From positions 1 to 32,002 of the forward strand of contig JAUCBJ010008664.1 of NCBI GenBank assembly GCA_032718475.1: DNA of 32,002 nucleotides, in the 5' to 3' direction. Positions 2 to 25,861 of this stretch are shown here, in pieces (position 1 is the stretch's first letter; each line of letters begins with the position of its first letter). This DNA comes from Nemertoderma westbladi (taxonomy: Eukaryota > Animalia > Xenacoelomorpha). A model generated the notes under the pieces. It was not told the origin of the DNA, did not search any database, and worked only from the letters and a program-made list of their open reading frames with translations. The position numbers were made by a program, and so were the translations under genes.

Positions 2-3000
2 CGCGGTATTTATTAGATAACAGGATTCATTGGCGTCGGAGAATTCGTCAGTATAGAATCCTTCCATCTCAGACTCTTGATCAGTGTCATTTACGTCACT
101 AAATTGGACATGTAGTTCGGGCTCACTTACCTGACTCTGTTTGTCTCGTTCAAACTCACTGTGTAACAAGATGTGATGTTTCGCGCCACACTTTGCACAC
201 TTTATGTCTGAGTAACAGGTTCGCCGTTGGTGTCCTGGTCTGAGGCAATTATAGCATAACCGCTTGTCCCACACAACTGTACGTCTGTCTACAAGGGATT
301 TCTTTAGAAATTCAGCACACGCACTCAAACGGTGTGTCCCGTCGCACAGCGCACAGTTAGGTTTTATGTTACTTACCTTACCTTGGGTAACTTGATGCAC
401 TCTCGTTTTTTCTTCGGGTTTTCTTCGGTGCATTCTGTTAGGAGACTGAGGAGGGGTCTTGGCAACCTGTTCTCTCCTATCGTTGTTTCGAGCCTTATAT
501 TTACTTACATCTTTTGAGGTTTTGTCAACATAGTAAGATCGGTCTGTGTCTTTCCCGCTGTCCTCTTCTTGGGAAGCTTGGCTTTCGCCGTCGTCAGTGT
601 AACACACCGGTGTTACTCTTCTCCTAGAAGTGGGTTTCTCACTTACCTTATTTTCCGATGTTTTCTCTCTGGACTGCTTGATGAGTTGTAGTTTGACTTC
701 ACCATCTAAGAAAGACATGAGGTCAGCCATGGTAGGACTTCGTCGTTGTTGTTCATTCATGTACAACACTTTCTTGTCCCAGCGTGTACATACTCCACCC
801 TTTGGTAAAGTAGAGACTACGGCTCCAATAACCATGGAACTCTGATATTCATGCGACTTACCTAACCAGTCCAGTTGTCTACAGATCTCTTGAATTTCAT
901 CGGAAAACTCTATAATCCCACTACTAAGGAAGTGTCGGGGGGCTACTAATTTTGCATACAAATACTTAGCTATGTTATCCTTGTTACCATACCTGATGTT
1001 TAATGTATCCCAAACTTGTCTTAATCCTTCTGGATGTCCAATAAACTTTAACGCCATTAACTTGGGAGGTCCTTCCAAGCACTTCATGAGGAATCTAAGT
1101 TTCTCTCCGTTAGATAGTACAGAGTTCTGTATGCTATCTTTGTAATATTCGTTGAAAGGTAACCATTTCATCTCATCTCCATTGAATTTGACGATCTCTC
1201 CCACTTTGACCGCTTGACGGGCTTCTGTTCTAGCCATCTGACGCGTAAAGCTTTCTTGGGCCATCGTGTTATTTAATATCGAATTATCGGTATATAAATT
1301 TCTCGGATCATTATCAGGTCTATAGGGAATATCATTAATAACAGGTCTATAATCACCCTTAATAGGGTTTGCTATAGGAGTTTCAACTTCACTAGCAGTA
1401 TAGATGCGTGTAGGCTCCACACCTTGCGCATGTAATACTTCAGACCTAACAGGTTGACACAATGTTACAGGGGGTATTGGTATGCCTCTTTGTATATTGA
1501 CTAATTTGTCGCGTTCTAGCGCGATACTTTGCTGCACTTCTTGCAACTCTGCTCTACCTTCCCTCACTGTTCCCTTAAGTTGGTGGACAGTCTCCTGCAT
1601 CTGTCCTAGCAGGAGATTCATCCCCCGCCGTCCCTCTTCCACCCACTCAACCGCCGAAGCGGGAGTCGCCAACATAGTAGCGGGCTGACGCGGGACGACG
1701 GGAGACAAATTTTTGATTTCTCTCTCTGCTATCTGGACAGGGATATTCTCTTGGACTGCTCCACCGGGTACAGGCAATGTAGTACTATGTAAAGGGAATT
1801 TAGAGTTAAGCTCTGGAAGTACAGGGGTCTCTAACACAGAAGTGACTTTGGGAACGACAGGCCTAATTATCTCAGGCTCATCAACTATTGTAGAGAGTCT
1901 TTGGACCTTAATACTTTGGGCTGTAGGTTCTATACTACTCAAGTCTGTGCTAGCTAGCTGTCTTCTAACAGCTGGGGGCAAATCAGGCAATTTGCGACGG
2001 TAAGATGTTTTTCTACGCCTACTTAGATGAGATCTATTTCCTCCGCCTTCAGGATCGGTAGTCTCGCCTTCCTCCGAGGACGTGTATCCCTGGCGCTTGG
2101 GAGTAGATTTTCTCATCATCTGCATTTGATTAGCAGTAAACTGTTTATTTATACTGTCTTGTGTCTCTTGCAGATTTTCCAACTCCAGTTGGGTAGTCTG
2201 CTCAGAGGCTCTCCGTTCTGCTTCTGCCACTGCCTTTGCTGCTTTTCTTTCTGCTTCTGCATCTGCCGCCGCTGCCTTTCTTTCTGCTTCTGCATCTGCC
2301 GCCGCTGCCTTTCTTTCTACTTCTGCTTCTGCCATAGCCGCCGCCTTTTGTTCCTCTATCCTTCTTTTCTTTATTTGTTCTTCTCGGACTCTAGTGAGGC
2401 GGAGTTTTTCATCACATTCAGCTTGGTTTGCAGCTAACATTTCGGCATCGATTGAGTCCAACACAAGCTTGGTTCCTTCACTATTAGGGGAAAGTCCAGA
2501 CAGCCGTCTCCTCAACTCTTCGTCTCCTAGGAATCGCTGATAGTCGGACAAATAAATGTCGATAGCGTCTCTAGTTCGCGGTTTCTCGGCGGTCTCTTCG
2601 CTTTCCGCTTGAGAAAGGGTGACATTAGTTGGTTCTTCATAGGTTGATCTCTCAGCCAGCTGGGATTTCCACTGGGCCGTTTCCTGTACTTTGAGATCTA
2701 CCCGATGTAACCAAGTTTTGACAGCAACCTGCAGCGACGTGTCCTGTCTTCTTTTGGAAGTTTCCTCAAAGGCTGAGAGGATTAGTCGAATGCGTAGGGT
2801 TCTTTCGCGTACTTGGTATAGCAGCTCTTCCTGCTCTTGAGGTCCTTGAGGTTGTCGAAACAGTTGTTCTTCCAATCGCTCCAAGGAGCCGAAGAATCCC
2901 TGCACATATCCTGATGCCGACCTCTTCCAAACAGCTGGATCCATTGTATCTTTTGCCACTCCCATCCTGTGTATATCTTCCCAAGTAGCCTCGGACAGGT

Positions 3001-3517
3001 CCAACGGGAGTCCGAGTCCGGGAAAGTTCCATTGTGACTCGACAATAGAAATTAATTCTTCCCTGGCGTATCCCGCATAATTATCTTGGGTCGCTCGCTT
3101 ATTCCTCGCCCAGTCGGCTTGATGTTCTTCCACCGCAATGAATATAGTAGTTAGCACTGCAGCAGGAAGGGTAAGAAGGGGGTCCGAGTAGACTGTTACA
3201 GCCATCTGCACTCCGCGTTCGGGGGTCAGCTCTACAGTATCCGAACTGCTGGAGCTATCGGGTCGCTGGGAAGTAGGTTCTTGACCAAGATGTTGCTGCG
3301 ATGGGACAACTGCCTCTTGGTTCCGTTTGACCTGTGCCCGAGTGCCTATGATGGACCTATGGTGGATTAGCCTAGGGTCTGATACTACTGGAGGGATGAC
3401 CTTTTTTGCAGTAGGAGGTGAGCTGAACTCCTTTCTTAATCGCTCCACACTCCTATCTGAGTCACAGATAGTTGTATCGATCAGACTGTCTGACAGGTTT
3501 TGCTGAGTGTCAGACAT
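2..3517 (-). CDS. gag: Bel/Pao LTR retrotransposon gag (N-terminal part of gag-pol), open through the left window edge
   Basis: I translated the minus frame by hand: ATG at 3517 (in-frame TAG just upstream), no stop down to position 2 (at least 1172 codons). It contains an Ala/Glu/Lys coiled coil (AEAERKAAADAEAERKAAAD, ~2220-2340), a DUF1759-like capsid segment (VKFNGDEMKWLPFNEYY...EKLRFLMKCLEGPPK...WDTLNIRYG, ~980-1200) and the Bel/Pao triple zinc knuckle CALCDGTHRLSAC / CYNCLRPGHQRRTC / CAKCGAKHHILLH (~160-355). It is absent from the ORF track because it has no stop in the window. Confidence 0.93.
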   Translation of the reverse strand, partial: MSDTQQNLSDSLIDTTICDSDRSVERLRKEFSSPPTAKKVIPPVVSDPRLIHHRSIIGTRAQVKRNQEAVVPSQQHLGQEPTSQRPDSSSSSDTVELTPERGVQMAVTVYSDPLLTLPAAVLTTIFIAVEEHQADWARNKRATQDNYAGYAREELISIVESQWNFPGLGLPLDLSEATWEDIHRMGVAKDTMDPAVWKRSASGYVQGFFGSLERLEEQLFRQPQGPQEQEELLYQVRERTLRIRLILSAFEETSKRRQDTSLQVAVKTWLHRVDLKVQETAQWKSQLAERSTYEEPTNVTLSQAESEETAEKPRTRDAIDIYLSDYQRFLGDEELRRRLSGLSPNSEGTKLVLDSIDAEMLAANQAECDEKLRLTRVREEQIKKRRIEEQKAAAMAEAEVERKAAAADAEAERKAAAADAEAERKAAKAVAEAERRASEQTTQLELENLQETQDSINKQFTANQMQMMRKSTPKRQGYTSSEEGETTDPEGGGNRSHLSRRRKTSYRRKLPDLPPAVRRQLASTDLSSIEPTAQSIKVQRLSTIVDEPEIIRPVVPKVTSVLETPVLPELNSKFPLHSTTLPVPGGAVQENIPVQIAEREIKNLSPVVPRQPATMLATPASAVEWVEEGRRGMNLLLGQMQETVHQLKGTVREGRAELQEVQQSIALERDKLVNIQRGIPIPPVTLCQPVRSEVLHAQGVEPTRIYTASEVETPIANPIKGDYRPVINDIPYRPDNDPRNLYTDNSILNNTMAQESFTRQMARTEARQAVKVGEIVKFNGDEMKWLPFNEYYKDSIQNSVLSNGEKLRFLMKCLEGPPKLMALKFIGHPEGLRQVWDTLNIRYGNKDNIAKYLYAKLVAPRHFLSSGIIEFSDEIQEICRQLDWLGKSHEYQSSMVIGAVVSTLPKGGVCTRWDKKVLYMNEQQRRSPTMADLMSFLDGEVKLQLIKQSREKTSENKVSEKPTSRRRVTPVCYTDDGESQASQEEDSGKDTDRSYYVDKTSKDVSKYKARNNDRREQVAKTPPQSPNRMHRRKPEEKTRVHQVTQGKVSNIKPNCALCDGTHRLSACAEFLKKSLVDRRTVVWDKRLCYNCLRPGHQRRTCYSDIKCAKCGAKHHILLHSEFERDKQSQVSEPELHVQFSDVNDTDQESEMEGFYTDEFSDANESCYLINTA

Positions 3518-3629
3518 GTTTAGCTATACAGTTGAATGTCTACTACTATAGTTTCAGTTAAAGCAAGTCTGGTAATTCAGTATGACCGCAAGCCTAGCGA
3601 TTTATTACCGATACCGTCACTCAGTGTAA

Positions 3630-4869: not shown

Positions 4870-5408
4870 CAAACAAAATACAAACCAAACGCTGGCAGAC
4901 TACTATCAAGCCTAAATAAACTACCGTACGTGTAGATTCTGAAATGGTTAGTTAGTATGCGTTCTAACACGGTAGTACGACGACTTATTCTTTAAGAGGG
5001 GATTGACCTTACAGCATATGGCTGCCCCAACTTACTAACAGCACTTTATCAGACCAACTCCACACACACAGCAATCTCTTCAGACCTAATAATAGCTAGA
5101 CAACAATCCAGCCTACAAAATATCTGAGTAATAACTATTACGGTACCTGAACAGACTACACAAACAAACACAAGCCAAAAATGCTGGCAAACCACGATCA
5201 AGCCTAAATAAACTACAGTATATGCAGATTCTGAAACAGTTAGTTAGTATGCGTTCTAACACGGTAGTACGACTTATTCTTTAAGAGGGGATTGACCTTA
5301 CAGCATATGGCTGCCCCAACTTACTAACGGCACTTTATCAGACAAACTCTACACACGCCGTAATCTCTCCAAACCCAACAACAGTCAGACAGCAGCTCAG
5401 CCTACAAT
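4870..5408. repeat. Direct tandem duplication (~290-bp period) in the Bel/Pao A leader
   Basis: GCTGGCA...ATCAAGCCTAAATAAACTA...GTTAGTTAGTATGCGTTCTAACACGGTAGTACGAC...TTATTCTTTAAGAGGGGATTGACCTTACAGCATATGGCTGCCCCAACTTACTAAC...CAGCCTACAA is present twice, starting near 4891 and 5183. Confidence 0.92.
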
Positions 5409-8458: not shown

Positions 8459-8635
8459 TGTTGCAACTGGTTGTTGCGACTCAATAACAAAGAAGCACTA
8501 CCAATGGTACTGTGTACCCTAGGCCTACCTAAGTCCCAGTGGTTGCTAAGCAAACAAATATACATTTCAACCGTTTTATCTAATAGTATGTTTCGAGTCT
8601 GTGTAGATTGCAGATTGTAATATGTGGCCGCCACA
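8459..8635 (-). repeat. Gypsy 3' LTR (177 bp)
   Basis: TGTTGCAACTGGTTGTTGCGACTCAATAACAAAGAAGCACTAC...TTTTATCTAATAGTATGTTTCGAGTCTGTGTAGATTGCAG..TGTAATATGTGGCCGCCACA aligns to 12612-12727 apart from about 60 extra bp. Confidence 0.93.
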
Positions 8636-8652
8636 TGACCCCCCCCCCCAGA
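8636..8652 (-). promoter_or_regulatory. Polypurine tract of the Gypsy element
   Basis: The minus strand reads CTGGGGGGGGGGGTCA immediately before the TG of the 3' LTR. Confidence 0.85.
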
Positions 8653-8666
8653 CTCGAAATATAGAA

Positions 8667-11600
8667 TTACAGGTAGTTGGGAGGGTGAACATTTCGGCCC
8701 GACCGAGTTTGTACGTGCAGTTTGTTCCAGTTCTGTGTCGGTTTTGTGGGCACCGGCCATGTCCTGGGAAGTTGAGGTTCTGGTGAAGGAACATGAGCAA
8801 TCGGAGGCTGTCCTCTATGGTGAGGCTGTCCGAGGACGACGGGCTCGGAGCAGTCGAGGTGCGCAGGTTTCAATCGGTCCACAGACACAGTTTCAGTGCG
8901 ACCCCCCATGTCGACCTGGAACGTCTTCGGCCCGTGGACGAGGACCTTGTATGGGCCCTCATAGGGACGATCCAGAGGAGTCCGGTGGGCGTCTCGTCGG
9001 ACGAAGACGTAGGTAGCCTCGTGGAGATCATGGGGAACCGATGATGGGGTGCAACCGTGACGCGATGTGGGAACCGGGGCGAACCAGCTGACTCATGGAG
9101 TTGCGGGAGGATCGTGGATGGGGTGTGTGGAGCATTCGGAGCTGATGGCAGGAACTCGCCTGGGACTATGTAAGTGGGGCACCATAGACGAGCTCGGTGG
9201 AGGAGGTTCCCAAGTCGTCCTTGGGGGCAGTGCGGATCCCAAGGAGAACTCACGGCAACTCGTCGACCCAATAGGGGCTGGTGAGGGAGGCGCGGAGGGT
9301 GGCCTTGAGGTGACGGTGGAAACGTTCCACCAGTCCTTTCGCCTGTGGGTGGTAGGCCGTGGTGCGGTGCAGTTGGGTGCCAAGCAACTGGTTTATGGCA
9401 GACCAGAGCTGGGAGGCAAACTGTGAACCGCAGTCGGAGGAGATGTCGGCTGGAACGCCAAACTGGGCAATCCAAATCGCAATGAGGGCGTGGGCGCAGC
9501 TCTATGTTGAAATATCCGCGAGTGGCACCGCTTCCGGCCACCGAGTAAACCAGTCCACCATGGTTAGTAGGTAGTTGAACCCCTGTGATGGTGGCAGAGG
9601 GCTGACGATGTCCACATGGATATGGTCAAAGCGGCGGTGGGGCAACTCGATGGTGCTGAGGGGAGTGCGCAGCGCACGTGGTGATGAATTTTAGAAGTCT
9701 GGCACAGCATACAAGTCTTTGCCCACTCTCCAACTTGTTTCTGCAGGCCATGCCAGATAAACCTGTTGGTGATGATAGTTCTGGTGGTTCGAATGCTGGG
9801 GTGGGACAGTCCGTGTATGGCGTCGAAAACATGGCAGCGCCACGAGATGGGAACTACAGGACGAGGACAGCCGAGGGAGACGTCGAAGAGCAGCGTGGTG
9901 CCGGAGGGACCGATCGGGACATCCTCCAGCTGCAGGCTGGAGATGGCGGTGCGGTAGGCAGGTATTTCGGCATCGACACATTGTGCAGTTGCCATGGCCG
10001 CGTAGTCGAGACAGGGAAGAAGGGCCTGGACTGCACCGAAATGGGTCCTTGAGAGCGCGTCAGCCACACGGTTATCTTTGACTGAGACGTGAGCGATCGC
10101 TGTGGTGAACTTGGAAATATAAGCAAGGTGCCGTTGTTGTCTGGCGGACCATGGGTCGCTGATCTTTGCAAATTAGAATGTAAGGGGCTTGTGATCGGTG
10201 TAGACAGTGAAGCGCGGCCCTCCATAAAATACCAGAAGTTGCGATCCGCGAGGTACAGGGCGAGGTGTTCGCGGTCGAATACACTGTATTTGACTTCCGA
10301 TGGACGGAGTTGGCGGCTAAAGAATGCTAGGGGGCACCACAAGTCGCCAACGAGTTGCTCGAGGACGGCACCTACCACCGTGCCAGAGGTGTCCACGATG
10401 AGTGGCGTGGGGGTGTTGGCGTCAGGGTGGACAAGCATTGTTGCATTGGCAAGGGCCTCCTTGGAGTCCTGGAATGCGCCCGCCATGTCGGAAGTCCAGT
10501 CGAGGATCTTCGGTTTCTCGGCAAGGGCTGCATAGAGAGGCCGCATGGTTGTAGCGGTAGCGGGGACGAACCAGTGGTAAAAGTTTACCATGCCTGGGAA
10601 CTCCTGCAGGACAGGCCCTTAATGGTGGTCGGCTGGGCGAAGTCCCGGATGGCGGCGACCTTGTCGGGAAGCGGGACGTCGCCATCGGCTGAGACGCGGT
10701 GGCCGAGGGGCTGGCACTTCCCCAGGTTAATGACAAGGCCTTTTTGTTGGAGGCGAGTAAACAGCTGTCGGAGGTGATCGCGGTGCTCCTTGGGTGACCT
10801 AATTGCGATGATGATGTCGTCGAGGTATACGAAGACAAAGTCGAGCCCCTGGCACACTGTGTCCATAAGCCGTTGGAAGGCCTGGGCCGCATTCTTCAAC
10901 CTGAACGGCATTCGAAGGAATTCGAACAGGCTGAATGGGGTTATGATGGCTGTCTTGGCGATGTTGGCCTTGTGAACAGGGATCTGGTGGTAGCCACACA
11001 CCAGATCGATCTTGGAAAAGATCTTGGCCCCAGCCAGTCGGGAGGAGAAGACCTGGATGTGAGGGATGGGGTACCGGTCCGGGGTTGTGGCATCGTTGAG
11101 GCGCCTGTAGTCGCCACATGGCTGTCTACCACCCGAGGGTTTAAGAGCCATGTGAAGGGGCGACGACCAGGGGCTGTTGGACCAACGGATGATACCCATG
11201 TCTTCCATCCTCCGGAACTCCTCTCGCGCAATCTCGAGTTTGTCCAGCAATAGGCGACGGGAGCAGGCATGCACAGGAGGTCCCTGGGTGGGGATGTAGT
11301 GCTCCACGCCGTGTTTTCCTGTGGGGTCGGAGAACCGCGGCACCATAATGTCGGGGAACTCGGCGAGTAACCGGGCAAAATCGTCATCAGAGGTGGTGAC
11401 TGAACCGAGGTGGAGGGCGTGACCAGTGGTTCATCCACACTGGATCGAGGTCAGCGTCTCGGTGTCGACCAGTCGGTGACCTCTCAGGTCGACCAACAAG
11501 TTGTTGGCTCGGAGGAAGTCAGCTCCAAGGAGAGGCTGGGTGATGTCGGCGGTGGTGAACTCCCATTCAAACTCCCGAGTTTGTCTGCAGCAAAACAGTG

Positions 11601-12528
11601 CGGTATCCATAGGTCCGAATGGAAGTTTTGATGTGGTGTTGTGATTGTTGTGGATCATGGGTTGTTGGCATGGGCTGTTGTGATTCGTGCGAGTCGTTTC
11701 TGGAATCATGCTGACCTCGGCCCCAGTGTCCACTAAGAATCGTTGCCCGGAAGTGCAATCCAGGGCAAAAAGCAGCAGATCGGGGTGGCCGGCCGTGGCC
11801 GCTGCTACTGGCCGGCTGGAGCGTTTCCTGCGAAAGTGCAGGGTGGGCGGCACTGCATAGCATTGGTACCGAAGGTTCAATGGTGGTAACACCACTCATC
11901 CTGTGCAGTTGCGGTTGAGGGTGCCGAGTTCATTGGCTTGGAGGCAGGGGTTCGAGTTGAGGTTGTCTTTCCGGTTTTTGGAAGCGCTTTTCATCCCGAC
12001 AACTACTGGTTTCGTAGCAGCGTGGGCGGAGAATGAGTTCAGCCGTGAAGTCACCCACAGCGTGTCAGCCCAGTCCGCGAGTCGGTCGAGGTCGCGAAAG
12101 TCCTCCTCGGCTAGTTAAAGGCGGATGTCAGCGGGCATCTGCCAGAGGAACACTTCCTCAAACAGCTGGCAGCTGTGGTTGTCACCAAGTAGTGCCTTCA
12201 TCTCGCTGAAAAGTTGAGAGGGACAGCGGTCACCGAGGCTGTTCAAATCCCAGAGCCGGGCAGCGCGGTCGCGGCGAGAAAGTCCGTAGGTCTTTAACAG
12301 CTTCGCCTTGATCGTGGTATACTGTTTGGTGGTGGGTGGGTTTCGAATGAGGTTGAGGAGTTGGCTGGTGGTGTCCTGGTCGAGGGCCCCCACCACTTAG
12401 TAATATTTAGTTTCCTCAGCAGTTATCCCCCAGTGGATGAACTGGGCCTTGGCCTGCTCGAACCACACATCCGGGTGTGTGGTCCAGAAGGTCGGCAGTT
12501 TGAGTGCAACTGCGTTGGCTTCAGCCAT
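8667..12528 (-). pseudogene. pol: Gypsy gag-pol, disrupted by multiple stops and frameshifts
   Basis: Gag starts MAEANAVALKLPTFWTTHPDVWFEQ at 12528 (in-frame TAA at ~12398). Protease FLVDTGAEVS lies in 11431-11895, RT DYRRLN...FSKIDL...MPFRLKNA...YLDD in 10585-11346, RNase H LIVDTSGTVVGAVL in 9854-10591, integrase H2C2 HGLSH...CMLC in 9564-10067, and the C-terminal VSVDRLKPA in 8667-8909. Confidence 0.94.
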
Positions 12529-12601
12529 TGCCTTGCAGCACTAGGAAGATAGAAGGGGTGCAGTGTTCTAGGGCTAACTTTAAAATACGTTCAAAGTCAT
12601 T

Positions 12602-12610
12602 GGGTCACCA
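12602..12610 (-). promoter_or_regulatory. Primer binding site of the Gypsy element (tRNA-Trp-like, partial match)
   Basis: The minus strand reads TGGTGACCC one base after the 5' LTR. This matches the first 9 nt of the usual tRNA-Trp PBS (TGGTGACCCCGACG), then diverges. Confidence 0.7.
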
Positions 12611-12611
12611 T

Positions 12612-12727
12612 TGTTGTAACTTGTTGTTGCAACTCAATAACAATGAAGCACTACAGAATGGTACCTTTTATCTAATAGTATGTTTCGAGTCTGAGTAGAT
12701 TGCAGAATGTAATATATGGCCACCACA
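12612..12727 (-). repeat. Gypsy 5' LTR (116 bp)
   Basis: TGTTGTAACTTGTTGTTGCAACTCAATAACAATGAAGCACTAC...GGCCACCACA, a diverged copy of 8459-8635 adjacent to the PBS. Confidence 0.93.
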
Positions 12728-12824
12728 TTGCTATACTTTTTTAAATTAGCGATATTTATAAATTTAATTTATTACTCATATCGATTAAAACTGTCTTTAC
12801 AACTTATATTTATTATTATCCACA

Positions 12825-15617
12825 ATGGAATGTATAGAAGGTCCTTATCGAATAACAAGAAACGGACGTAAAATCTGCCTCATCATCAATATTACTAAAT
12901 ATCTCAATAGTTGCCGTGATAGAACCGATGGATCCCAACGTGATGCCGAACATATCAAGAAAGTATTTGGTGACCAGCTTCACTGTGAGGTTATGGAATT
13001 TAAACCAGAAAACAACGGTTTTATAACACGTGAGCATTTAGTTTCAGGAATGACCAGTTTTCGTAACAATGATTGTTTGAAGGATATTGAATGCCTATTC
13101 GTTTTTTTGATGAGTCACGGTTGTAGAGGTTCACTTATTTGTTCAGACCAGGAACAGGTTCCCATACGAGACGTTATTAACTTATTATCAAATGACTGCC
13201 TTTCTCTAAGATTACCGGTAGCAAAACCTCGAATATTTTTTGTGGAAGCTTGTCAATCAAATAATGCTGACTTTGATCAATATGATATTGATATATCTAG
13301 TCATAAATTCAATCACATTGCATTGGCTATGGGTTGCAGCCCAGGCGAAACACTGCCACTATACAATGATCAAGGTTCCCTTTTTATAAGTACGGTTTGC
13401 GGAATCATAAGTTATATAATACAAAACCATATACGTGGAGAAATTAAGACATTATTTGGGAAGCTAAAATCAGAACCAATATCGTACGGTCAAGAAGGTC
13501 AAATGATATCTCATCCACAAGTGACTGACAATTTACTGCACAACTTATTCCTTCTCGACTTTGTGCAGAGTGTTTCCAAATTTAGAATTGACAGTTTGTG
13601 TGAGGTACACTTTAATGGAGCTGAAAAATACCTGAAATGTGGAATTAATGGGATTGGCATTTTTGAAAAGTCCACAGAAGAAATTCTGCAACTACCAATC
13701 CCATCTCACCAAGGTTTAATTACGAGTTGCGCACTATCGCAAAGTAATAATAGAGTAGCAGGATGTTCACAGAATGGCGGTGTAGTTATCTGGGACATCG
13801 GTTGTTATCCACCGACAATATTGTATGACATTCCGCATTCTCAAATAATAATGAATATTGAGAATGAAAATCCAATCAATCAACCAGTACTCACCCCACG
13901 CAGAGCTGTCTTCAACCCAACCAATGATTCAATAATTGCAACATGCCATTGTGGTGGAAGCTGCACAATCATCCATCTTGGCAGTCAAAATATTTTACAA
14001 ATGACATGGAGATTGCACGATAATGGTGGTGTATTTGATATTGCTTACTCCCCAGATGGTACAAAACTGGCTTCATGTGCTGATAAATGGTTGACAATAT
14101 GGAATTTGGAAGGGGTGCCAATGGCTTTACCAAAAAAAATTGAAAGTCATTTTTTTGAAACTACATCACTTCTTTGTGTTAGATGGACACCTAACGGAAG
14201 ATATATGTTAACCACAAGTGAAGGGGAATTTACTGTTTATTGTTACGATATTGAAAGAAGAGAAATTGTCTGGAAGAAGCCAATAGACGCTACTCGTATT
14301 GCGATTCATGAATTTGGTAATATTTTGGCTGTTGGGGGAAGTTTGGGAATCTATCTACTGAAAACTGCTACAGGAGAACAACTTCGAAAAGTTAGTGAAA
14401 AGGAAAACGCTGCTCTCATTGGTTTAGAGTTCTTGGGAGGCAACCTTCTCATTGGTTGGAGTATTGGGCTGGTTCTAGAATATAATTTAGAAACAATATT
14501 ACAGACAAATGAAGCAAATCCACATTCAACATACGAAGTTGAACTCTCTCTCCAAAGTGACAATTTTAAAGGCTATTCTTCACATCTTGATGGACAAGAT
14601 GGAGAAATCAATAGTATTAAAGAAGGGTTCACAAATAAGGATAAACAAGTGGTTGGGAATGATACTGTAAAAGAATATTCTCCACATCCTGATAAACATG
14701 ATTCTGGAAGATTTAAAAATTGTTCTACACATGATGATGAACACTTTAATGAACCTAACAATGCTAAAGAATATTATACTCTTGACGATGAACATATTCT
14801 AGAAACTTCAGGGAATTTTCATTCTACATATAATGTAGAAGATGTTGTTGGAAGTGATATTGTTGAAAAAAGTTTTTCTCACCATTATAATCATTCTGAA
14901 TCACAAATTGAAAATCCAACCATGCTGTTGAAGGATGCTGATCGCATTCTGAGAATCAGAATGGTAGCAAACCATCTAAAGCGTCGCGATCTTAGACACA
15001 TTAATTTTCTCTGTTCTGATATGATCGATGAGAAGTGGTCAGATGAAATCGTTTCAGGACCAAAAGAGGTTTATGATCTAAGTCAAACAGGTTTAATCGC
15101 AGTGGACAACATGCACATTTTAGATATTCTTCTGTATATGGTGGAACGAAAAGATCTATTGGAATTATTGAATACGAATAGTGTAACAGTTAAAACTAGA
15201 TTACAACCTAGTCCCTTTAAATACTTCTCACCGTATCGCTGTCTACTTTATGAGGTGGCAAAGGACTTTGCAATGAAGGATTTCAGGGATTTTAAGAAGA
15301 TGTGTTGGACTCGCAATTTATTGATTACTCACTATTCTTGGGCTGATGTTACTGACACCATAGGACTAATTCGAATTCTAGAAAAGTCTAAAATCATTTC
15401 TGAGGACAATATATCCACACTTACTGAGTTTGTATCTGAAAAAGCAAATTTAGGAAAAACCCACAGTATGTTAGTCAAATACATAGATAGATTATCGTTA
15501 AAGAAACGTCACAAGGAAGATTGTCAACTGCATGAAGAGTTCCTCCAGGTGCCAGGGAACAAATCAGTAGATTCCCCAATAGTTAAGTCAGGTCAGGAGA
15601 TAAGCGAAAAGAGATAG
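12825..15617 (+). CDS. 930-aa protein: N-terminal caspase (peptidase C14A) domain, WD40 beta-propeller, acidic linker, two C-terminal death effector domains
   Basis: Uninterrupted ORF with start context ACAATGG and an in-frame TAA at 12786. Caspase, aa ~8-245: CLIIN, FLMSHG (His98), KPRIFFVEACQ (Cys143), p10-like GSLFISTVC and HPQVTDNLLHNLFL. WD40, aa ~250-556: HQGLITSCALSQSNNRVAGCSQNGGVVIWD, VFDIAYSPDGTKLASCADKWLTIWNL, LCVRWTPNGRYMLT. DED1, aa ~705-783: DLRHINFLC...LIAVDNMHIL...RKDLL. DED2, aa ~801-888: SPYRCLLYEVAKDF...LEKSKIISEDNISTL. Confidence 0.9.
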   Translation: MECIEGPYRITRNGRKICLIINITKYLNSCRDRTDGSQRDAEHIKKVFGDQLHCEVMEFKPENNGFITREHLVSGMTSFRNNDCLKDIECLFVFLMSHGCRGSLICSDQEQVPIRDVINLLSNDCLSLRLPVAKPRIFFVEACQSNNADFDQYDIDISSHKFNHIALAMGCSPGETLPLYNDQGSLFISTVCGIISYIIQNHIRGEIKTLFGKLKSEPISYGQEGQMISHPQVTDNLLHNLFLLDFVQSVSKFRIDSLCEVHFNGAEKYLKCGINGIGIFEKSTEEILQLPIPSHQGLITSCALSQSNNRVAGCSQNGGVVIWDIGCYPPTILYDIPHSQIIMNIENENPINQPVLTPRRAVFNPTNDSIIATCHCGGSCTIIHLGSQNILQMTWRLHDNGGVFDIAYSPDGTKLASCADKWLTIWNLEGVPMALPKKIESHFFETTSLLCVRWTPNGRYMLTTSEGEFTVYCYDIERREIVWKKPIDATRIAIHEFGNILAVGGSLGIYLLKTATGEQLRKVSEKENAALIGLEFLGGNLLIGWSIGLVLEYNLETILQTNEANPHSTYEVELSLQSDNFKGYSSHLDGQDGEINSIKEGFTNKDKQVVGNDTVKEYSPHPDKHDSGRFKNCSTHDDEHFNEPNNAKEYYTLDDEHILETSGNFHSTYNVEDVVGSDIVEKSFSHHYNHSESQIENPTMLLKDADRILRIRMVANHLKRRDLRHINFLCSDMIDEKWSDEIVSGPKEVYDLSQTGLIAVDNMHILDILLYMVERKDLLELLNTNSVTVKTRLQPSPFKYFSPYRCLLYEVAKDFAMKDFRDFKKMCWTRNLLITHYSWADVTDTIGLIRILEKSKIISEDNISTLTEFVSEKANLGKTHSMLVKYIDRLSLKKRHKEDCQLHEEFLQVPGNKSVDSPIVKSGQEISEKR

Positions 15618-15671
15618 GCGATAGTCGATAGGCGATAAGAGCTAAGCGATAGGCTATAAGAGGTAGGCGAT
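15599..15671 (+). repeat. Short degenerate GCGATAG-type heptamer repeat spanning the stop codon
   Basis: GATAAGCGAAAAGAGATAGGCGATAGTCGATAGGCGATAAGAGCTAAGCGATAGGCTATAAGAGGTAGGCGAT. Confidence 0.7.
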
Positions 15672-15870
15672 CTGCACAACCCATCTCATATCTCAAGCCG
15701 ATCTCTCCATTTCAAACCTTTAGATTCCAATAATATGGAAATCGGTGCATCGGGAAATCTGGAATTACACATCCTTTAGTTCTTATTAAGTATCTGAAAA
15801 CTCATTTATTTCACCTTTATTACATTAATTTGAAATCAATTGATTTGATTGTGGACAATTTAAAATTTAA

Positions 15871-16224
15871 GCCCCCCCCCCCCCCCCCCCCCCCCTCACT
15901 CGGAGCAACTCAGGTTTGGTACAACCTGTGTTTTAAGAAAGTACCTCGAGTGAGGGAGTCTGCAATAAGTTGCTGGATTCGGGACACTCTCAGCAACATT
16001 TGGCAACAAACGTATTAAGGACGTTTCTGTGTGAGGTAGTCAGAGACCTACCTAATATTATTTTAATGGTTTGCGTAGTTTTATAGTTTAATTAAAAGAC
16101 TGGAAACTTTTTAGCTATTTATTTTAAAATAAATTATTGTTATTCTTGAGAAAAAGGTTTCCCTCGTGTGAGGAGTCTAGCAACAAGTTGCAGAAACAAG
16201 TTGCTCCGTGTTAGGGGGAGGGGC
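15871..16224. mobile_element. PIF/Harbinger-like MITE (~350 bp)
   Basis: Imperfect TIRs GCCC...CCCCTCACTCGGAGCAACT and AGTTGCTCCGTGTTAGGGGGAGGGGC, flanked by TAA on both sides (3-bp TSD), with internal subterminal AAGTTGC repeats. Confidence 0.7.
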
Positions 16225-16882
16225 TAATTATTATGCAATAGGTGATGTACAGTATGTGGTGGCGGTTTATGGTTTAATCTAATTGTTTTTGCTGTTGAAT
16301 TAGGAAATAAATTTAAAAGTAAATAGTAATCGACTAGGGCTATTAAGATTAAGATTGAAATATTAAGGCATGGTCTATTAAGATTACGTTTTCACTTAAG
16401 AAGACACATAATTAAACATTATTCTGCATCACATTACTTAAAGGCAGGGTTCCGGAGTTGGAATGTTTAATAAATGAATAGGACTCCAAGTCCATAATTA
16501 AGCATTGTTTTGTAATCCTCATGTTTATCTTAGAAACCAATATGATGTATTCTCATTCAAAAATGAACGCATATACTGACAATGATTGTTGGAATTAAGC
16601 ATAATTCACATTTGAGTTTTTTTCAAATTAATTTAATTTTTGGTTTGGGAAAGATTTCGGCAAGAGACGGAGTCTTTTTTACGTCAGATTTGGAGTCTTC
16701 AAATTTTTCCAGGACTCCGGAAACTTTCTTATAGGAGTAATTTCTCCACCCTAGGCTTCTGTTCGCTGAGAAAATCATGGCAATATGAAGAAATGAACTC
16801 AAAAAGAGTTGACTCCATGAAAAAATCAAACGAGTTTAATTCGATTTATCGATGAACAAGAATTTTAAAAGTTAAATAAAGA

Positions 16883-16927: not shown

Positions 16928-18404
16928 TTCGAACAAAGTATTACGATTTAATTCCAATGCGGCCCCCAGAACTATAGGCCTACCCCCAGAGGAAACTCCA
17001 TACTCATTAGCTACTACTTCAGGGTGCAAGGCAGAGATGCGCCCTGGCTAGTCCATTTAAATCATTCTTGCCGAAGCGAAAACTACCCTTGCAAACCTCC
17101 AAAGAAATGTTAATTCAAGGCAATGGATTTAACCACTACAGCAAAGTGGGACACATTATTAGTAATTTTGTAGCATCAAACTCTGAGAAATTTAAAAAAC
17201 ATATACACATAGCTTTAATAAGATAATAATAACATAACATAAGATAATGACGATTTCAAGTTATCAAGTGTTAATTAAGCTTTACTCCTGTAAATGATAC
17301 GTAATTACTATATCTACAGGAGCAACCTGCGTAAATACACATTCGTTGGTACAGTACTTCGAGCAGTACAAGTCTAGATGAGCCTTAGCTTGCAGTATTA
17401 TTAGTGGATAAGGTCCAGGTCACTCCTACCAAAATTTAGATGATTCTGATAGTTGTTTCTATAATAATTATAGCTACTCCAAGTTTTCTCACAATTCGCC
17501 CCCTAGCGGACGACAGATGAACTATAGAACTTATACAGTATCTGTGTGTGGAATTTCTAAACTTTTGATAGACTACATTTGTATAAGTTTGCTTATTAGC
17601 GTTCAAACATTTTCCAACTACGACAACGACAGTAACGTAGCGTTCTCACCCACACGGCAGAGGCTTCTCAGAATCAACAAGCAAAATTCGGTATGGTATA
17701 GGGAAATCACCATTCTATCTGACAAACTGCTATGTTTCCGGTGTGATGGAAAATAATGTCAGTGATAGTGAGATTGAAACATCAAACGTCAGATAACATT
17801 TATTATAATGTCGGTATAAATAAAGGCACTTCTTTATCTACTTATGGCTTTATGTTTGCACGATACATCAGTTAGGCAAAGGGGTATATTGTGTATGTAA
17901 TGTACTCCATGGACTGGGTATATTATGGACTAAAGGGGTGATATTTTATGTCAATGACTATTCCGTTGTTAACCTTGTTAATATTTAATATAAAGGACCC
18001 CCTCAGAAATAAGCTGACAAGCTTTAGGGGATTTCCGATTCCCTGTATGTTAGATAAATATTATTATTAAATGTAATAATTACAATTGCTTTGTATTACA
18101 ATATTAGTGTAAGTACAGCATGTCACCCTTCGGCTCATTTTTTGTCGTTCTGTCATCCATATACCAAACGTGACACGCATAACTTCAAATTAAAGAGACC
18201 GTTATGACGTCACTGTTACATAAATGTACAGTAGGCGTAAAAACAATGAAGTTCTTAATTAATAGTAAACCTAACTCAATTACTATCTTTAAATGCTTGC
18301 CTACCACAAACTGGAATACACCATAGGCCTACCTTTTGTAAATATAATATATTATTTTAATAATTATTTAATCATCAGTAAATATATCATTTTACATTAT
18401 ATAT

Positions 18405-18682
18405 TTAATGAGGGGCGAGCGACGAAAGTAAGCGAGCTTAGCATACAGGTACCACTAACTCAATCGGTGTGTCTGTAGGGCGAGCAACGAAGTGAGTGAG
18501 CCTTAGCGTAGTGGTACCATTAATCAACCTGTCGTTCTGTCGCTTTTTTTGCGGTGTTCAATTTTGAACGTTAATAACTCGATCAATCCTCGATGAAATG
18601 TAACCAAACTTGGTACACAAATAGTCTGTCAAAAGTTTAGAAATTTTCCAAGTTGAATTTGCTTGGGGCCTTCGTGCAGCAC
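18405..18682 (+). mobile_element. Helentron/DINE-like non-autonomous element fragment, copy 1
   Basis: Duplicated GGGCGAGC.ACGAA.GT.AG.GAGC motif, then a TTCTGTCG...AATAACTCGA...CCAAACTTGGTACACA...AAAAGTTTAGAAATTTTCCAAGTTGAATTT core repeated at ~20410-20552. The family assignment is by resemblance only. Confidence 0.5.
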
Positions 18683-19789
18683 CAGTGTAACTGTCTTACA
18701 GTTATAATAAATTTATTTATCCAAAATTATAACACTTGACATCAGCAGGTTGTTAGGAGACTAAATCAGCTGGGTTTCTGCAATTACAAATTACAGTACT
18801 GCAGTAATACCATTGTGGCCTGTCTGCCTGTACCGGTACTATACTCAATGTCAATCCCTGAATCAGGAATCCTGCAATCAGACAATACTGCAATACCATA
18901 CTGTATTCGGTGTTTTACGGTACTGGCTGACTGGTACCGGTACCGGTGCAGTGATTATAGTTCACGTATACTGGTACAGGACAGGCTGACAGGCCTCTGT
19001 AGGCCCTAATTAGCCATGCCTGCATGCTATGCACTGAAGTGCGGACTCCGGAGTGCTGGACTGTGGTCCTGAATTAGATTAGAGGGTCCGTTGGCGCCGT
19101 ACCGCCCTACTACTGTCAGACTGTAGAACCGGACTGGTAGCAACTGCCAACTACAGAACTACAGGTACGGTACCGGTACTGAACTACGACAGCACTATAC
19201 CGCATTTCTACGCTCCTGTCAGCGACGGAAGAAAATGAATTTCTTCATTTGCGGTTTCTACTCTTGTTAACGGTTAAATATGTTAATTAAAGACTATGTA
19301 TTGGTACGACCGACGGCACCGCACTGGCAACTGGTATAATCAGATGTAGATGTACATACCAATCTGCCAATACAACAATAGCAATAGGCCTACCCCTACC
19401 AACCATCCATCGACTCGGCAACTGCAACAATGGAAGTTATGTGGACTAACCAGCTGACCGGCATTCTAAGATCAGGTACCCACTACCAGAGTCTACCCAG
19501 CTGCCCAGAAAAGTGTTGGAATTGAAATCAAACAACTCACCACCAAGGCCGCCTCTGTCTGTTGACCTCGACTTTCGGTATCGCTGCCGCTACGGGCAAA
19601 CTGGACTAACCGTAACCGAGGATGAAATAATCCGGTTTTTTAATCTCACTCTGCCATCACCCAGTGCCCGGCGGTGTTGAAATTGACACGCATTGTACAA
19701 GCAGTAGGCCTATTGCTCCGAGTTTCCGGCTGGTCGGGTGCAACTACTGCATCTACATTGCCACACTATAACTCGGGCTCATGAGGAAT

Positions 19790-20136
19790 GAGTGCTGCGT
19801 AGACTATATTCCTATAAACCAAAACCATACCTGGCTTCGCCTATTGAACGCATTATAAAGATCGTCAGTCTTCGTTTAGGAAAGATATTTAAATACAAAA
19901 CAGGACGAGCACAACGAGACTTATAATGAAGACGAGTACTGCGTTGACTATTATTATTATATAAACCACCTGGCTTCACATATTGAACGCATCCCTTGTT
20001 ATTATTATTATAAAGATCGTCAGCCTGCGTTTAAGAAATATTTTTAAATACAAAACAGGACGAACTCAACGAGGCTTATAATGAACGTACTGCGTTTATT
20101 ATATTCCTATAAACCACATGGCTTCGCATATTGAAC
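19790..20136. repeat. Tandem repeat with a ~145-155-bp unit, about 2.3 copies
   Basis: GAGT.CTGCGT.GACTAT...CCTGGCTTC.C.TATTGAACG...TATAAAGATCGTCAG...TTTAAATACAAAACAGGACGA..CAACGAG.CTTATAATGAA is repeated. Confidence 0.88.
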
Positions 20137-20364
20137 GTGCGATTGGAAATAAGTTTGTGCTACCCTTCCGCCCCGTCAGCCCGTGGGTGGTAGATTAGCG
20201 GTTATGTATTGGTTGGTGAGAAGGGGAGGGGGGGGGGGGGGGGGTGCAGATTTAAAGGGCTGAACACGTATTGTCCCCCTTTCTTTGATTGATTGGCGGT
20301 GTGGTTAAATTTCTCAAATACTTATTTTGTGATACAGTCGCTCAATTTTAATTTGTATCTCATA

Positions 20365-20555
20365 ACTGGGCCTCGTGCTGCGTGAAGGCCCCACGAACGT
20401 GTCGTTCTGTCATTCTGTCGCTTTTTTTGCAGTGTTCAATTTTAAACGTTAATAACTCGACCAATCTTCGATGAAATCTATCCAAACTTGGTACACATGT
20501 TGTTTGGCAAAAGTTTAGAAATTTTCCAAGTTGAATTTTCGTGAGGCCTTCGAGA
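20365..20555 (+). mobile_element. Helentron/DINE-like non-autonomous element fragment, copy 2
   Basis: Direct repeat of ~18531-18674. It is preceded by CGTGCTGCGTGAAGGCCCCA, whose reverse complement recurs approximately at ~18664 and ~21672. Confidence 0.5.
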
Positions 20556-21208
20556 AGCTATAATAATAGCAAGTAATTAGTTAATTAAATTGATTACGGT
20601 AAAAACAGCACTTTCAACCTGCCTTTTAAAGGAAATTAATTATTTTACAGTATAAGATTTAAATAATTATACTTAAAAATTATACAGATGTAATCCACAT
20701 ACCCCATTCTATTATAGTTTTTAATTGATCACTAATTAATTAGTGTCTTTAATTGATCTAAACGTAATTAAAGCAGCATAATTATTGAGTACAAATTTAA
20801 TCCTGCCCATTATTGGTTAACATAGTCTCTGCGGGGGTGTAGAGCTGCTAGCTGGCTGGGAGATGTAATAGGCAACCAGTAGTATTGCTATAGCAACCCA
20901 GACATAACTCCAACCATACACTGCCTGTATTTCAATTCCTATTGACTCTATACTATAAATGTTGTATTACTTACTATCTCAGGTGACAGAAGATATAATG
21001 ACTTGTAGGCTTATATCTGAAATAGTTTATTCCGCAATATATTTTTCTGGTTATTTTTTAATTGAATTTTTGCAAAGTAGTAAAATTAATGTTCTTAAAA
21101 ATAATATTATTATATTATTTTATATGTAACCTAGAAAATTATCTAAATTTTTTCGCTGCAGCTTTAAGAGTGTCCACATTGATTTAATATTATTTCAATA
21201 CCCATATT

Positions 21209-23042: not shown

Positions 23043-25543
23043 TCACCTCTCTACCGATTCCCTGGGCGCTGGTGTTATTAGCTCCCAGTATCGCTTCGTG
23101 GGTGGCCCCTCCGAATGGCCCTGTTGTTTCCCCCTAGTGGCGTCCCATAGGATCACTTTTATAGCCCGCGGCACATGCTCCGCCAAGAAATCTCTGAACT
23201 CTCCCCGGTTCTGTGGTGTCCACCTGTCCAAATACCTCTGAGTATTTATCACTCCGGCATACGACGCCGCCGTTGACACCTCCTGATAAGTAAACGGAAG
23301 TCTCTGTTTAATAATTTCCAGGTGGGCCTCCTGGTTGATATTAAAGAAGCCCCACCGGAATTCCTGGGCCTTCATCCGCTGCCGGGTCATAGCGCCGACA
23401 TCGGCCCACTCCTCGAAGATCCTAAACTTCTCCTCGTCGTCCATCCAGTCGCACTGGCGTCCGTAGTGCCCCCGGAAGTTGCACTTAGAACACCGGTTGT
23501 GCAACCGTGGACACGCCCCCATCCTATGACTCGACTCGCAGCAGTAGAGACAGCTAGTCCCTTTCTGGAATCGCTACAAGCAGCTCCTTTCCTGGTGAGT
23601 CTGCCTCCCGCAGTAATCGCAGCTGAGTACCAATGCCTCCCGCCCCACGTCGTCTTTCGTCCCAAGCGATCTCCTCGGTCTATGGAGTCGCTGGTAAGCA
23701 AACTTCTGGACGTTAGCGTCTCTGTCCACGTCTATCTCCTCGCCCCGCCAGGGCATCGTCTCTCCGAATACTACCCGTGGTGCCGTTCCCGGTTGCTCGC
23801 CCAACCTGATGGTGCTCCCCGCGAAATCCATCGCCGGTTCCTCATGCACCCAGGCCTGCCTGCTGGGTCTATCCCAGAAGGCTCTCGCCCCGCTGGCCAT
23901 CACCACTCTACCGCCAACCCAGTCCGTGTCCGAGTGGCCGATTCTCCCGATGGGCGGCATCTCTTCGAACTCGTTGTCATCCTCGTCCTCCTCTGGGAGT
24001 GGCTCCAATCCCGGTATCCCGGTGGATCCACTGTGTCCCTTCCCACCTTGGCTCTCGCCCGTGATTCTCCATCCTTCCAGTTCCATTGGCCTCCTCTGCG
24101 CAAAATCGCCCTCGGCGCCCGCTGGTATGGGCGTTGTCTGCAAACCCGATGTCGACTGTTTCGGCGATCCTACCGTCCACCCCAATTCTCGCCCTAGAGA
24201 CTCGCCCAAACTCCCTGATGTCCAGTGCAGGTCATCTAAGGCCGCCTGTTCCTCGAACCCGTAGCCTTCTCCTCTAGTTTCCGCCTCCCTTTCTTCTGCC
24301 TCCCTCCTTTCTCGCCTCTCGTCTATCCGCCTCTAGCTGCTCCCACCTCTGATATGGCGTATCCACCTCCCCATCTACTAGATATCAGCAGTTATAGTAT
24401 ACCTTCAGCCCCGGGTGGTCTACCTGACCCTCAAAAGCCACTTTGAAGGCTCTTCCTTTGTTCAGGGGTGATCCCGATAGCAGGAATGCCGTTGGTTCTC
24501 TCTCGATAACCACGGTCATAAATAGGTTTAGCAAACCTATCATTATCCAGTCCTCCTGCAGGATATATCGCTTCTGATATACCTTTATCACTCCTCTCCG
24601 GAATTGATACACCTCTTGCTTCCCCCTTCTCGCTCCCCACTTCAGCGAGTTTGCCAACTCCGCCTCGTACTCCTCTCTGAATTTACTCCAGTCCATTGGT
24701 TTGTGGCATACGAGACCCATCATCCGACCCATCGCCACCGCTCCACAATGGCCCACGTTCTCTACTAGTCCCAACCCGTCTGGCGCTGTCATAGCCATGT
24801 AGACCGTCTGCATGTCCAGGAGGTTGGGGGTCTCCGGACCGATGATCCTCTCCGCATCGTTGCAGATCGCCGATCCCACCTTTATCGTCGACTTCTCTCT
24901 TATTAGGTACTGCACCGCCTTTGGCAACCGGTTTAACTTCGGCCCGTTCTTCTTCCCATACGTTCCCAGATCGAACAGGAAAATATCCCCATTTGGCGTG
25001 GCCAAATGTAGGAGTATAGTTCTGGCCGACCCCACCGACCCTCTTCTCGAACCTTCCTTGTCCTCCACGGTCCCCTCATCGTCTAGGACCATGTATCCTC
25101 CCCTGCTGACGGAGTCTACGAACCTCTTCCAGTCTTTTCTCGGTGGTTCCTTTGGATACTTTGGTATCTCGAACTTTGCCTCGTCTCCCCTCACCACGTA
25201 GTGGAAATGCCTCGAAGATCACGTTGTCTAGCGATGGTGTCCCGTAGGTCCCGACCAGCCGCTGTTCGTGCACCTCCCTGAAATGGTCCTGCAGCGCTCG
25301 CGCTTTGTGACCCCTCTCTAACTGCTCGTAGTATCCCCTCGTCTTCTCTTCCGAATGCCTTTCGGTGAAATCCACCAGTATCTCCTTTCCTCCCAACTCC
25401 GCCTTTCTCTTTCTGACAAGTTTCTCCGCCATTTCGAACTCTCCCGATCGCTCACCTATAAGGTGGGGCCTTGCCAAGGCACAATACAAGTGAGTGATGT
25501 AGTTAGGATGGTCTGTACAGTCCGATAATGGCCTATCTCTCAC
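23043..25543 (-). pseudogene. Disrupted accessory ORF: DEDDy (WRN/EXD2-like) 3'-5' exonuclease, charged/acidic region, three CCHC zinc knuckles
   Basis: Consecutive minus ORFs 25076-25543, 24385-25197, 23574-24209 and 23043-23522. The last two are in the same frame, separated by one TAG. Exonuclease motifs: YMVLDDEG, ILLHLATPNGDIFLFDL, LPKAVQYLI, IKVGSAICND, LLDMQTVY, QKRYILQED. Knuckles: CDYCGRQTHQERSC, CLYCCESSHRMGAC, CSKCNFRGHYGRQC (23451-23621). The first ATG in good context is at 25432. Confidence 0.75.
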
Positions 25544-25861
25544 TGAATGTTAGGTTATCGCCTAATTTTTCTACCTTATTTTCTAAAAGTGCTAAATTTA
25601 CTAAATTCTGTAATTTTTGTCCGTTACTTTAATTGTGTTCTGGAATATTTTTCCCTACTGTTACCATAATTTGTCTAATTTCTAATTTTTTAATATTTAT
25701 TTTAATTCTACAACTGTGCTATCAGTATCTACTAATGCATTATTCTACTTATAATCCACATTCTGGCCTACTCTATGGGCTTGTGCAGTACAGCAGTATG
25801 TCTCGTGTGGCCTACACGATCTGTCCAGCTGTACCCACGTGCCCCCCTCTCACTACTCACT

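Follow-up and report, generated by a model that had tools for sequence, protein, structure and literature searches.

The closest described systems to the gene presented here are caspase-8 and caspase-10, c-FLIP, which lacks the catalytic dyad, and a number of fusion proteins with WD40 propellers. Caspases with death effector domains (DEDs) carry these ahead of the protease in the cited literature, which is given by PMC number. In bacteria, caspase-WD40 fusions make up 10.9% of the caspase homologues (PMC3501461). Direct fusions of a sensor with a caspase, TNFR-caspase and LRR-caspase, are described from amphioxus (PMC2575513), and PMC8195603 has DED-TRADD-N-WD40 proteins from amphioxus and oyster as well as proteins from amphioxus and sponge that end in two DEDs. 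Here we describe a gene of Nemertoderma westbladi from contig JAUCBJ010008664.1 of assembly GCA_032718475.1; its positions 1 to 32,002 are the stretch analysed, below called the window. The open reading frame (ORF) at 12825-15617 is a single gene encoding a caspase ahead of a WD40 propeller and two DEDs, an order opposite to that of caspase-8. From its residues, the protein likely tunes cell-death or immune signalling rather than triggering it. The features of the gene, with nucleotides and amino acids abbreviated nt and aa, are:

12730..12824, + strand: likely splice acceptor (AG 12748-12749) and 5' untranslated part; a contig of sequencing run X1 matches from 12750 on (weak, one run)
12825..15617, + strand: coding sequence, caspase - WD40 - acidic linker - DED - DED, intronless, 930 aa plus stop
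12840..13553, + strand: caspase domain (C14, animal type), large and small subunit, without prodomain, aa ~6-243
13116..13118, + strand: catalytic His98, kept, from alignment with caspases
13245..13253, + strand: Glu141-Ala-Cys143, catalytic Cys kept and pocket Gln changed to Glu, from alignment with caspases
13353..13361, + strand: Leu177-Pro-Leu179 against Ser-Trp-Arg of caspase-3, second pocket Arg lost, from alignment with caspases
13602..14486, + strand: WD40 propeller, aa 260-554, predicted to have seven blades, of which the second and third are joined by a long loop (aa 337-357)
14505..14924, + strand: acidic linker of degenerate in-frame repeats of ~51 nt (~17 aa), aa 561-700
14964..15173, + strand: DED1, aa 714-783, which retains the buried Phe728-Leu729 and, at 775-778, Arg-x-Asp-Leu
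15234..15434, + strand: DED2, aa 804-870, its true end probably near ~890, with the exposed Phe-Leu replaced by Lys825-Met826
15618..16325, + strand: possible 3' untranslated region with AATAAA at 16306-16311; contig end in one run, weak

An earlier reading of the sequence alone (the sequence-only reading) had proposed one unbroken ORF of 930 aa with the order caspase, WD40, acidic linker, DED, DED, and both claims hold. The ORF has no internal stop, the remaining two forward frames have 57 and 107, and 930 open codons would arise by chance at the local base composition with a probability of ~1e-31. The domain order is confirmed by Pfam profile scans, run on the whole ORF and on separate parts, and by a predicted model of the propeller. 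In these scans no NTPase family (NB-ARC, NACHT) and no CARD was scored. A model of the full-length structure from the single sequence had a predicted local distance difference test score (pLDDT) of 33 and was of no use. Within 12730-12824, two in-frame stops precede the ATG, and if the acceptor is real these exclude an N-terminal prodomain from that splice. The stop codon sits within a degenerate 14-nt tandem repeat (15595-15671), and the last residues of the protein may thus derive from repeat DNA. A circular permutation from a tandem copy was considered and is without local support, as no caspase, WD40 or DED module remnants were found in the window besides the ORF.

The caspase domain is related to animal caspases and has a changed substrate pocket. 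PF00656 matches aa 15-213 (E 5.7e-21, profile positions 1-206 of 233). The best 60 of 109 PDB matches are all animal caspases, and caspase-8 and caspase-3 score similarly. His98, Gly99 and Cys143 are invariant in our caspase alignment (A1), where the last strand region is also aligned, and the animal-caspase motif ahead of Cys143 is kept. Asp residues at 149-156 are placed where caspases get matured. Caspases bind aspartate in a basic pocket via Arg179, Gln283 and Arg341, in caspase-1 numbers (PMC2064784). The first of these is kept as Arg33, with a one-residue insertion beside it, and the other two are replaced by Glu141 and Leu179. Both replacements are placed free of gaps against caspase-3, in a stretch between two anchors, and also against both fetched caspases; we take the caspase-3 pocket positions to correspond to the caspase-1 numbering. 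The stretch between aa 162 and 203 lacks both Arg and Lys, and no register shift can therefore restore the second pocket Arg. Pro178 falls within the substrate-binding loop. The pocket of meta-, ortho- and paracaspases is acidic, with Asp at 283, Asp or Glu at 341 and Leu at 179 (PMC2064784), and it is not matched by Glu141, Leu179 and Arg33. Going by its residues, the pocket is neither of the aspartate type nor of the Arg/Lys type.

The two C-terminal DEDs of the sequence-only reading are confirmed, DED1 over the Pfam cut-off and DED2 under it but far above shuffled sequences. In brief, the whole-ORF scan scored two C-terminal stretches as DEDs (E 6.9e-15), and scanned alone DED1 reached E 2e-10 and DED2 E 1.8e-5, the latter at 25.3 bits against a cut-off of 35.9. 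Compared with a fetched caspase-8-like protein, DED2 scored 19.8 bits, the maximum of 40 shuffles being 2.2. The pair is ~30% identical to that protein, without a stop across 190 codons, and it groups with animal DED clusters in the Atlas (score 0.93). Among solved structures the DEDs of caspase-8 are the best match (E 5.5e-8; c-FLIP 0.013). The segment between the DEDs had been described as caspase-8-like, and it aligns to human caspase-8 with a single gap. DED1 retains the Phe-Leu motif that packs two DEDs together, and the pair thus looks folded. In DED2, Lys825-Met826 is aligned with Phe122-Leu123 of caspase-8, and an alternative register likewise gives no Phe. Mutation of this Phe-Leu in caspase-8 halts filament growth and activation and spares the first recruitment by FADD (PMC3477315), and the mutant forms no filaments on its own (PMC3477315, PMC11074299).

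In the ORF, three repeats were scored by PF00400 (E 3.2e-14). The about seven WD40-like blades that had been counted in the sequence are supported, as a prediction, by an AlphaFold2 model of aa 246-565 and by Foldseek. The model has seven blades at aa 260-554 (pLDDT 77.7, predicted template modelling score 0.79), the last of them three-stranded. It was built from an alignment of 55 generic WD40 proteins picked from the 157 matches described below, which biases it toward a propeller fold. Foldseek matched the model along its entire length to WD40 propellers, with template modelling scores of 0.62-0.75 among the matches listed. The predicted structure closes into a ring of seven WD40 blades. The predicted loop that joins blades 2 and 3 holds a cluster of seven of the listed read differences (13832-13871), which alter three codons; on the model, this loop is a candidate variable binding loop. 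The linker is acidic as first described, with 20% Asp and Glu against 7% Lys and Arg, and has no Pfam family. Its repeats are identical at 33 of 45 nt at an offset of 102 (best of 30 shuffles 28), and the ten top offsets of the self-match are all multiples of three.

Read support comes from four public runs (X1-X4) of three studies, one of which may be the source of the window itself; none of the runs is recorded as RNA, which is no evidence on expression either way. An X1 contig at 12750-13915 extends from before the ATG through the caspase into blade 3 (depth 31.6), and another at 14213-15831 extends from blade 5 through both DEDs (depth 33.4). X2, X3 and X4 give one contig each from 14439, in blade 7, past DED2. 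Every domain junction is bridged by single contigs, the one between caspase and propeller in X1 only among the pieces listed. The X1 pieces listed overlap by just 15 and 20 nt inside the propeller, and none listed covers the whole gene. In X2 the window's own letters have a depth of 33-34 at the listed caspase, propeller and DED positions. X1 has depth in 23 of 30 bins; most of the upstream retroelement and 16346-16679 are uncovered, and such gaps in cover were not taken as evidence.

The variants listed (40 of 320) include 22 changes in the ORF, 11 synonymous and 11 non-synonymous with no stops, and none of the indels listed (12 of 60) falls in the ORF. The neutral expectation is 73-79% non-synonymous (21-27% synonymous), and the ratio of non-synonymous to synonymous polymorphism (pN/pS) among the variants listed is 0.26-0.38 (p 0.002-0.02). 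The caspase-WD40 half holds 21 of the 22 changes, 11 of these 21 synonymous. Since junctions are bridged by single contigs and the variants lean synonymous, an artefact or a pseudogene is unlikely. Selection or a recent origin had been read from the intact ORF as a whole; signs of purifying selection are seen in the caspase-WD40 half, and the claim does not extend to the DEDs, where the one variant listed is non-synonymous.

Additional copies of part of the gene seem to exist. The summed contig depth, a rough measure, of the caspase and 5' propeller over that of the DEDs is 2.3x in X2, 1.5x in X3, 2.9x in X4 and 0.8x in X1. In X2, alternative letters have a depth of ~40 at positions where the window's letters show 33-34. 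This fits one or more additional copies with at least 90% identity over the 5' half, and points to extra copies of the caspase-WD40 half, which may lack the DED tail or carry a diverged one. On that reading, many of the variants listed would be differences between copies and not alleles. X3 and X4 share a single sample label, yet the two differ at several listed positions within 12672-14341, and the label may therefore cover more than one individual.

There is a weak hint, from one run (X1), that the gene is expressed. The first X1 contig begins to match exactly at 12750, after AG and a pyrimidine-rich tract, and has 134 further letters beyond; 22 of 9979 positions qualify as AG with such a tract. 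This start hints at splicing, as an allele free of the upstream Gypsy-type retroelement should match 22 nt further. Another X1 contig stops 14 nt past the AATAAA at 16306-16311, with 126 of 4383 positions qualifying. It should be noted that both tests were chosen after the data were seen.

We tentatively suggest that the protein is a lineage-specific modulator that would dock via its DEDs on platforms of the FADD/caspase-8 type, to cap or divert them. Given the rebuilt aspartate pocket and the lost Phe-Leu motif of DED2, it is unlikely to be a trigger in the manner of caspase-8. The tandem DED would fold like that of caspase-8 and be recruited to a host DED platform. Without the exposed motif of DED2 it would extend the chain poorly, so that the chain would be ended or slowed, as by c-FLIP but by other means. 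The 140-residue acidic linker could let the caspase domain reach a neighbouring caspase from the opposite end of the chain. With its rebuilt pocket, the caspase domain would be a weak or non-aspartate enzyme and mostly a dimer partner, and the propeller may bind a protein ligand that decides the time or place of action. As to origin, a duplicated caspase-WD40 gene may, in one lineage, have acquired the repeat linker and a DED pair like that of caspase-8. Caspase-like decoys of insects arise through duplication (PMC3141678). The sequence-only reading had favoured DEDs that polymerise followed by action of the protease. This is weakened by Lys825-Met826 and by the replacement of two of the three pocket residues, neither of which that reading had noticed, and the alternative mentioned there, a regulator of DED filaments, is the better fit.

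Several observations weigh against a modulator. The protein retains the His-Cys dyad and the Gly that follows the His, in keeping with an active enzyme. Variation at Arg341 and at Ser339 is also found in mussel caspases (PMC3037946), and such changes are thus no proof of a dead pocket. The small subunit scored 0.2 bits against the two fetched caspases, with a shuffle maximum of 1.1; it is strongly diverged and scores no better than shuffles, so that a caspase fold there is putative. A caspase-8 mutant at the Phe-Leu motif still yields short filaments with FADD (PMC11074299), and the DED surfaces may have co-evolved with the host FADD and caspase-8. The DEDs hold only 1 of the 22 variants listed, which limits the selection signal to the caspase-WD40 half, and the X1 contig at 12750-13915 has one gap, its position within the span not being listed.

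The alternative that survives best, though we regard it as unlikely, is an active protease of altered specificity, in which the DEDs would recruit, clustering would activate and the propeller would pick a substrate cut after a residue other than aspartate. The dyad, Arg33, the animal-caspase motif before Cys143 and the Asp residues at the maturation site (149-156) would suit such an enzyme, as would the lean toward synonymous variants in the caspase-WD40 half (11 of the 21 listed). An acid at the position of Gln283 is also found in non-aspartate relatives, as Asp in meta- and paracaspases (PMC2064784). However, Leu179 stands where relatives that cut after Arg or Lys carry Asp or Glu (PMC2064784), and Pro178 lies in the substrate-binding loop. 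A broader form of this idea is a family of caspase-WD40 proteases in animals, so far undescribed, whose tails can be exchanged. The present protein would be a member that has reversed the layout of caspase-8 and rebuilt the pocket, an active non-aspartate caspase docked on death-receptor platforms by its C-terminal DEDs and aimed or switched by its own propeller within a single chain; this too we hold to be rather unlikely.

We consider it improbable that the protein is a single-chain sensor-adaptor-protease, in which a ligand on the propeller would free the DEDs, these would polymerise and cleavage after aspartate would kill the cell. The ORF does hold the three parts in frame, the TNFR-caspase and LRR-caspase of amphioxus are precedents (PMC2575513), and three of the four listed non-synonymous changes in the propeller fall in the loop at aa 337-345, although these numbers are tiny. 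Against this stand the lost exposed motif of DED2, the rebuilt aspartate pocket and the lack of a scored NTPase family. Quite improbable is a chimera of recent origin whose function would lie in the caspase-WD40 half alone, with the DED tail as a neutral newcomer, or else whose entire sequence would be drifting. It would agree with extra copies that seem to share the 5' half only, with variant evidence for selection from that half, with the degeneration of both the pocket and the DED surface, and with the lack of a relative of the same order in the collections searched. However, the DED pair has stayed free of stops for 190 codons at ~30% identity to the caspase-8-like protein, the linker repeats have diverged while in frame, and the gene has survived the insertion of an LTR element, the two ends of which now differ by ~9%. 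An assembly chimera of two paralogues joined within the propeller would suit the 15 and 20 nt overlaps in X1, the lack of a listed contig over the whole gene and the other copies of that part, but is highly improbable given the similar depths of the two X1 contigs (31.6 and 33.4), the steady 33-34 of the window's letters in X2 and the X2, X3 and X4 contigs that each run from blade 7 through DED2.

Beyond three broken long terminal repeat (LTR) retroelements, with their frames in pieces, the window is AT-rich DNA. Taken with the caspase and DED domains of animal type, this setting indicates an animal genome. The elements are:

2-3523: Bel/Pao-type gag of a broken LTR retroelement
8459..12727, - strand: Gypsy-type LTR retroelement, broken, with LTRs at 8459-8635 and 12612-12727, not part of the protein
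from ~23000 on: second Bel/Pao-type element, broken

The ORF had been described as intact beside two decayed retroelements; the decay is confirmed and the number is three. The LTRs of the Gypsy element agree in 106 of 116 aligned columns (~91%). The distance from the end of this element is 97 nt to the ATG and 22 nt to the likely exon start, and the element may influence how the gene is spliced or expressed. The LTR on the side of the gene is without 62 nt that are found in the other LTR, and the flanks of the element match in three of four letters, a possible target duplication. In or beside the second Bel/Pao-type element, three stretches on the negative strand were noted. The first, 23043-23573, has Cys/His knuckle-like motifs and no Pfam or PDB match. 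The second, 23574-24329, has a weak zinc-knuckle match (E 0.051, in the range 23043-25549). The third, 24385-25218, has no Pfam or PDB match and, judged by eye, resembles a 3'-5' exonuclease. Repeats include a 47-nt tandem array at 26071-26305, a 33-nt coding repeat in the first gag (2183-2347), dispersed duplications at 4887-5407 and 18529-20558, and very high-copy repeats at 17014-20000.

Searches for homologues gave no protein of the same order. A full-length search gave 7 matches among 5077 candidates, none covering more than 30% of the query, and the exact protein sequence is absent from the protein collection searched. The caspase domain had no match among 393 longer or 1675 shorter proteins. 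A HMMER search of 1.84 billion representatives yielded 15,261 matches at E 0.001; among the best 150, those with 79 bits or more, 149 are generic WD40 proteins. The order caspase-WD40-DED-DED was found in none of the 157 matches from the full-length search (7) and HMMER (best 150 of 15,261). These comprise 155 with a propeller only, one with a caspase only, a glass-sponge caspase of 31% identity, and one with a caspase and DEDs without a propeller. Distant relatives of this order may exist below 79 bits, and word-based searches are insensitive at ~30% identity. No relatives were found among 32 pattern matches in metagenome contigs, 3 in viruses and 69 in prokaryotes, plasmids gave two chance matches only (E 1 and E 4), and NCBIfam gave none.

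The sequence-only reading knew of no described protein with this domain order, and we likewise found none in the literature and collections searched, most subscription papers and the domain-architecture databases lying outside the search. A mention of "dual C-terminal DED domains" of caspase-8 and -10 in fish (PMC13067673) was rejected as a slip of wording, as the excerpt also calls the CARDs of caspase-1, -2 and -9 C-terminal. One fetched protein, P0105, reads caspase-DED-DED-caspase and possibly is two tandem genes merged in one model; merged models of this kind can mimic a reversed order in databases. What appears to be new is the order caspase-WD40-DED-DED, and what is known is that invertebrates have shuffled death-fold proteins. 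A reversed natural order tests whether DED platforms need the usual geometry or merely proximity, and the pocket allows one to ask directly if specificity for the residue ahead of the cut (P1) can shift in animal caspases with the dyad retained. If the protein is indeed a modulator, it would be an independent invention of a c-FLIP-like brake.

The comparison with Apaf-1 made in the sequence-only reading holds in that a WD40 propeller is shared with a death-signalling protein of the apoptosome. It is otherwise loose, as no NB-ARC or CARD was scored, there is one propeller and the caspase is on the same chain; bacterial caspase-WD40 fusions, which that reading left unmentioned, are moreover common (PMC3501461). 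By its features, the whole protein is nearest to bacterial WD40 and caspase-WD40 clusters of the Atlas (0.78-0.86), which is a lead only. The supplement of PMC8195603 also has a bacterial caspase followed by a death-like domain, adjoining a gene for an ATPase-propeller protein. The present gene differs from bacterial caspase-WD40 proteins by a protease of the animal type, true DEDs and a neighbourhood of eukaryotic retroelements. Convergence is more likely than transfer to account for the likeness, from these features. The present protein is so far seen in one lineage.

Like death-fold proteins that have been shuffled in amphioxus, oyster and sponge, the gene joins sensor-like repeats, DEDs and a caspase in a lineage-specific manner (PMC2575513, PMC8195603). 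It has a DED together with a propeller and a low-complexity linker, as do the DED-WD40 proteins of amphioxus and oyster, and its DED pair is C-terminal, as in proteins of sponge and amphioxus (PMC8195603). None of the 14 "propeller+DED" rows in a supplement file of PMC8195603 has a caspase, and the order caspase-WD40-DED-DED was not found there. In an amphioxus model of 7154 aa from the same supplement the caspase adjoins a DED, and no propeller is listed.

The protein has in common with caspase-8 and caspase-10 the tandem DED, the segment between the DEDs, the His-Cys dyad and a caspase domain of the animal type. In contrast to these, its DEDs are C-terminal (aa 714-870) and its caspase is at aa 15-213, with the propeller and the repeat linker between them. 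It also has no prodomain, a changed pocket, a changed exposed motif in DED2 and an intronless coding sequence. With the long form of c-FLIP and the viral FLIPs, the protein shares a tandem DED and a caspase-like domain, which in the present case likely has a regulatory and not an executing role. Unlike in c-FLIP, the dyad is intact, the order is reversed and there is a propeller, and the DEDs match c-FLIP less well than caspase-8. By these defining features the protein falls outside the caspase-8 and c-FLIP subfamilies, yet in its action it likely is a modulator of the c-FLIP type.

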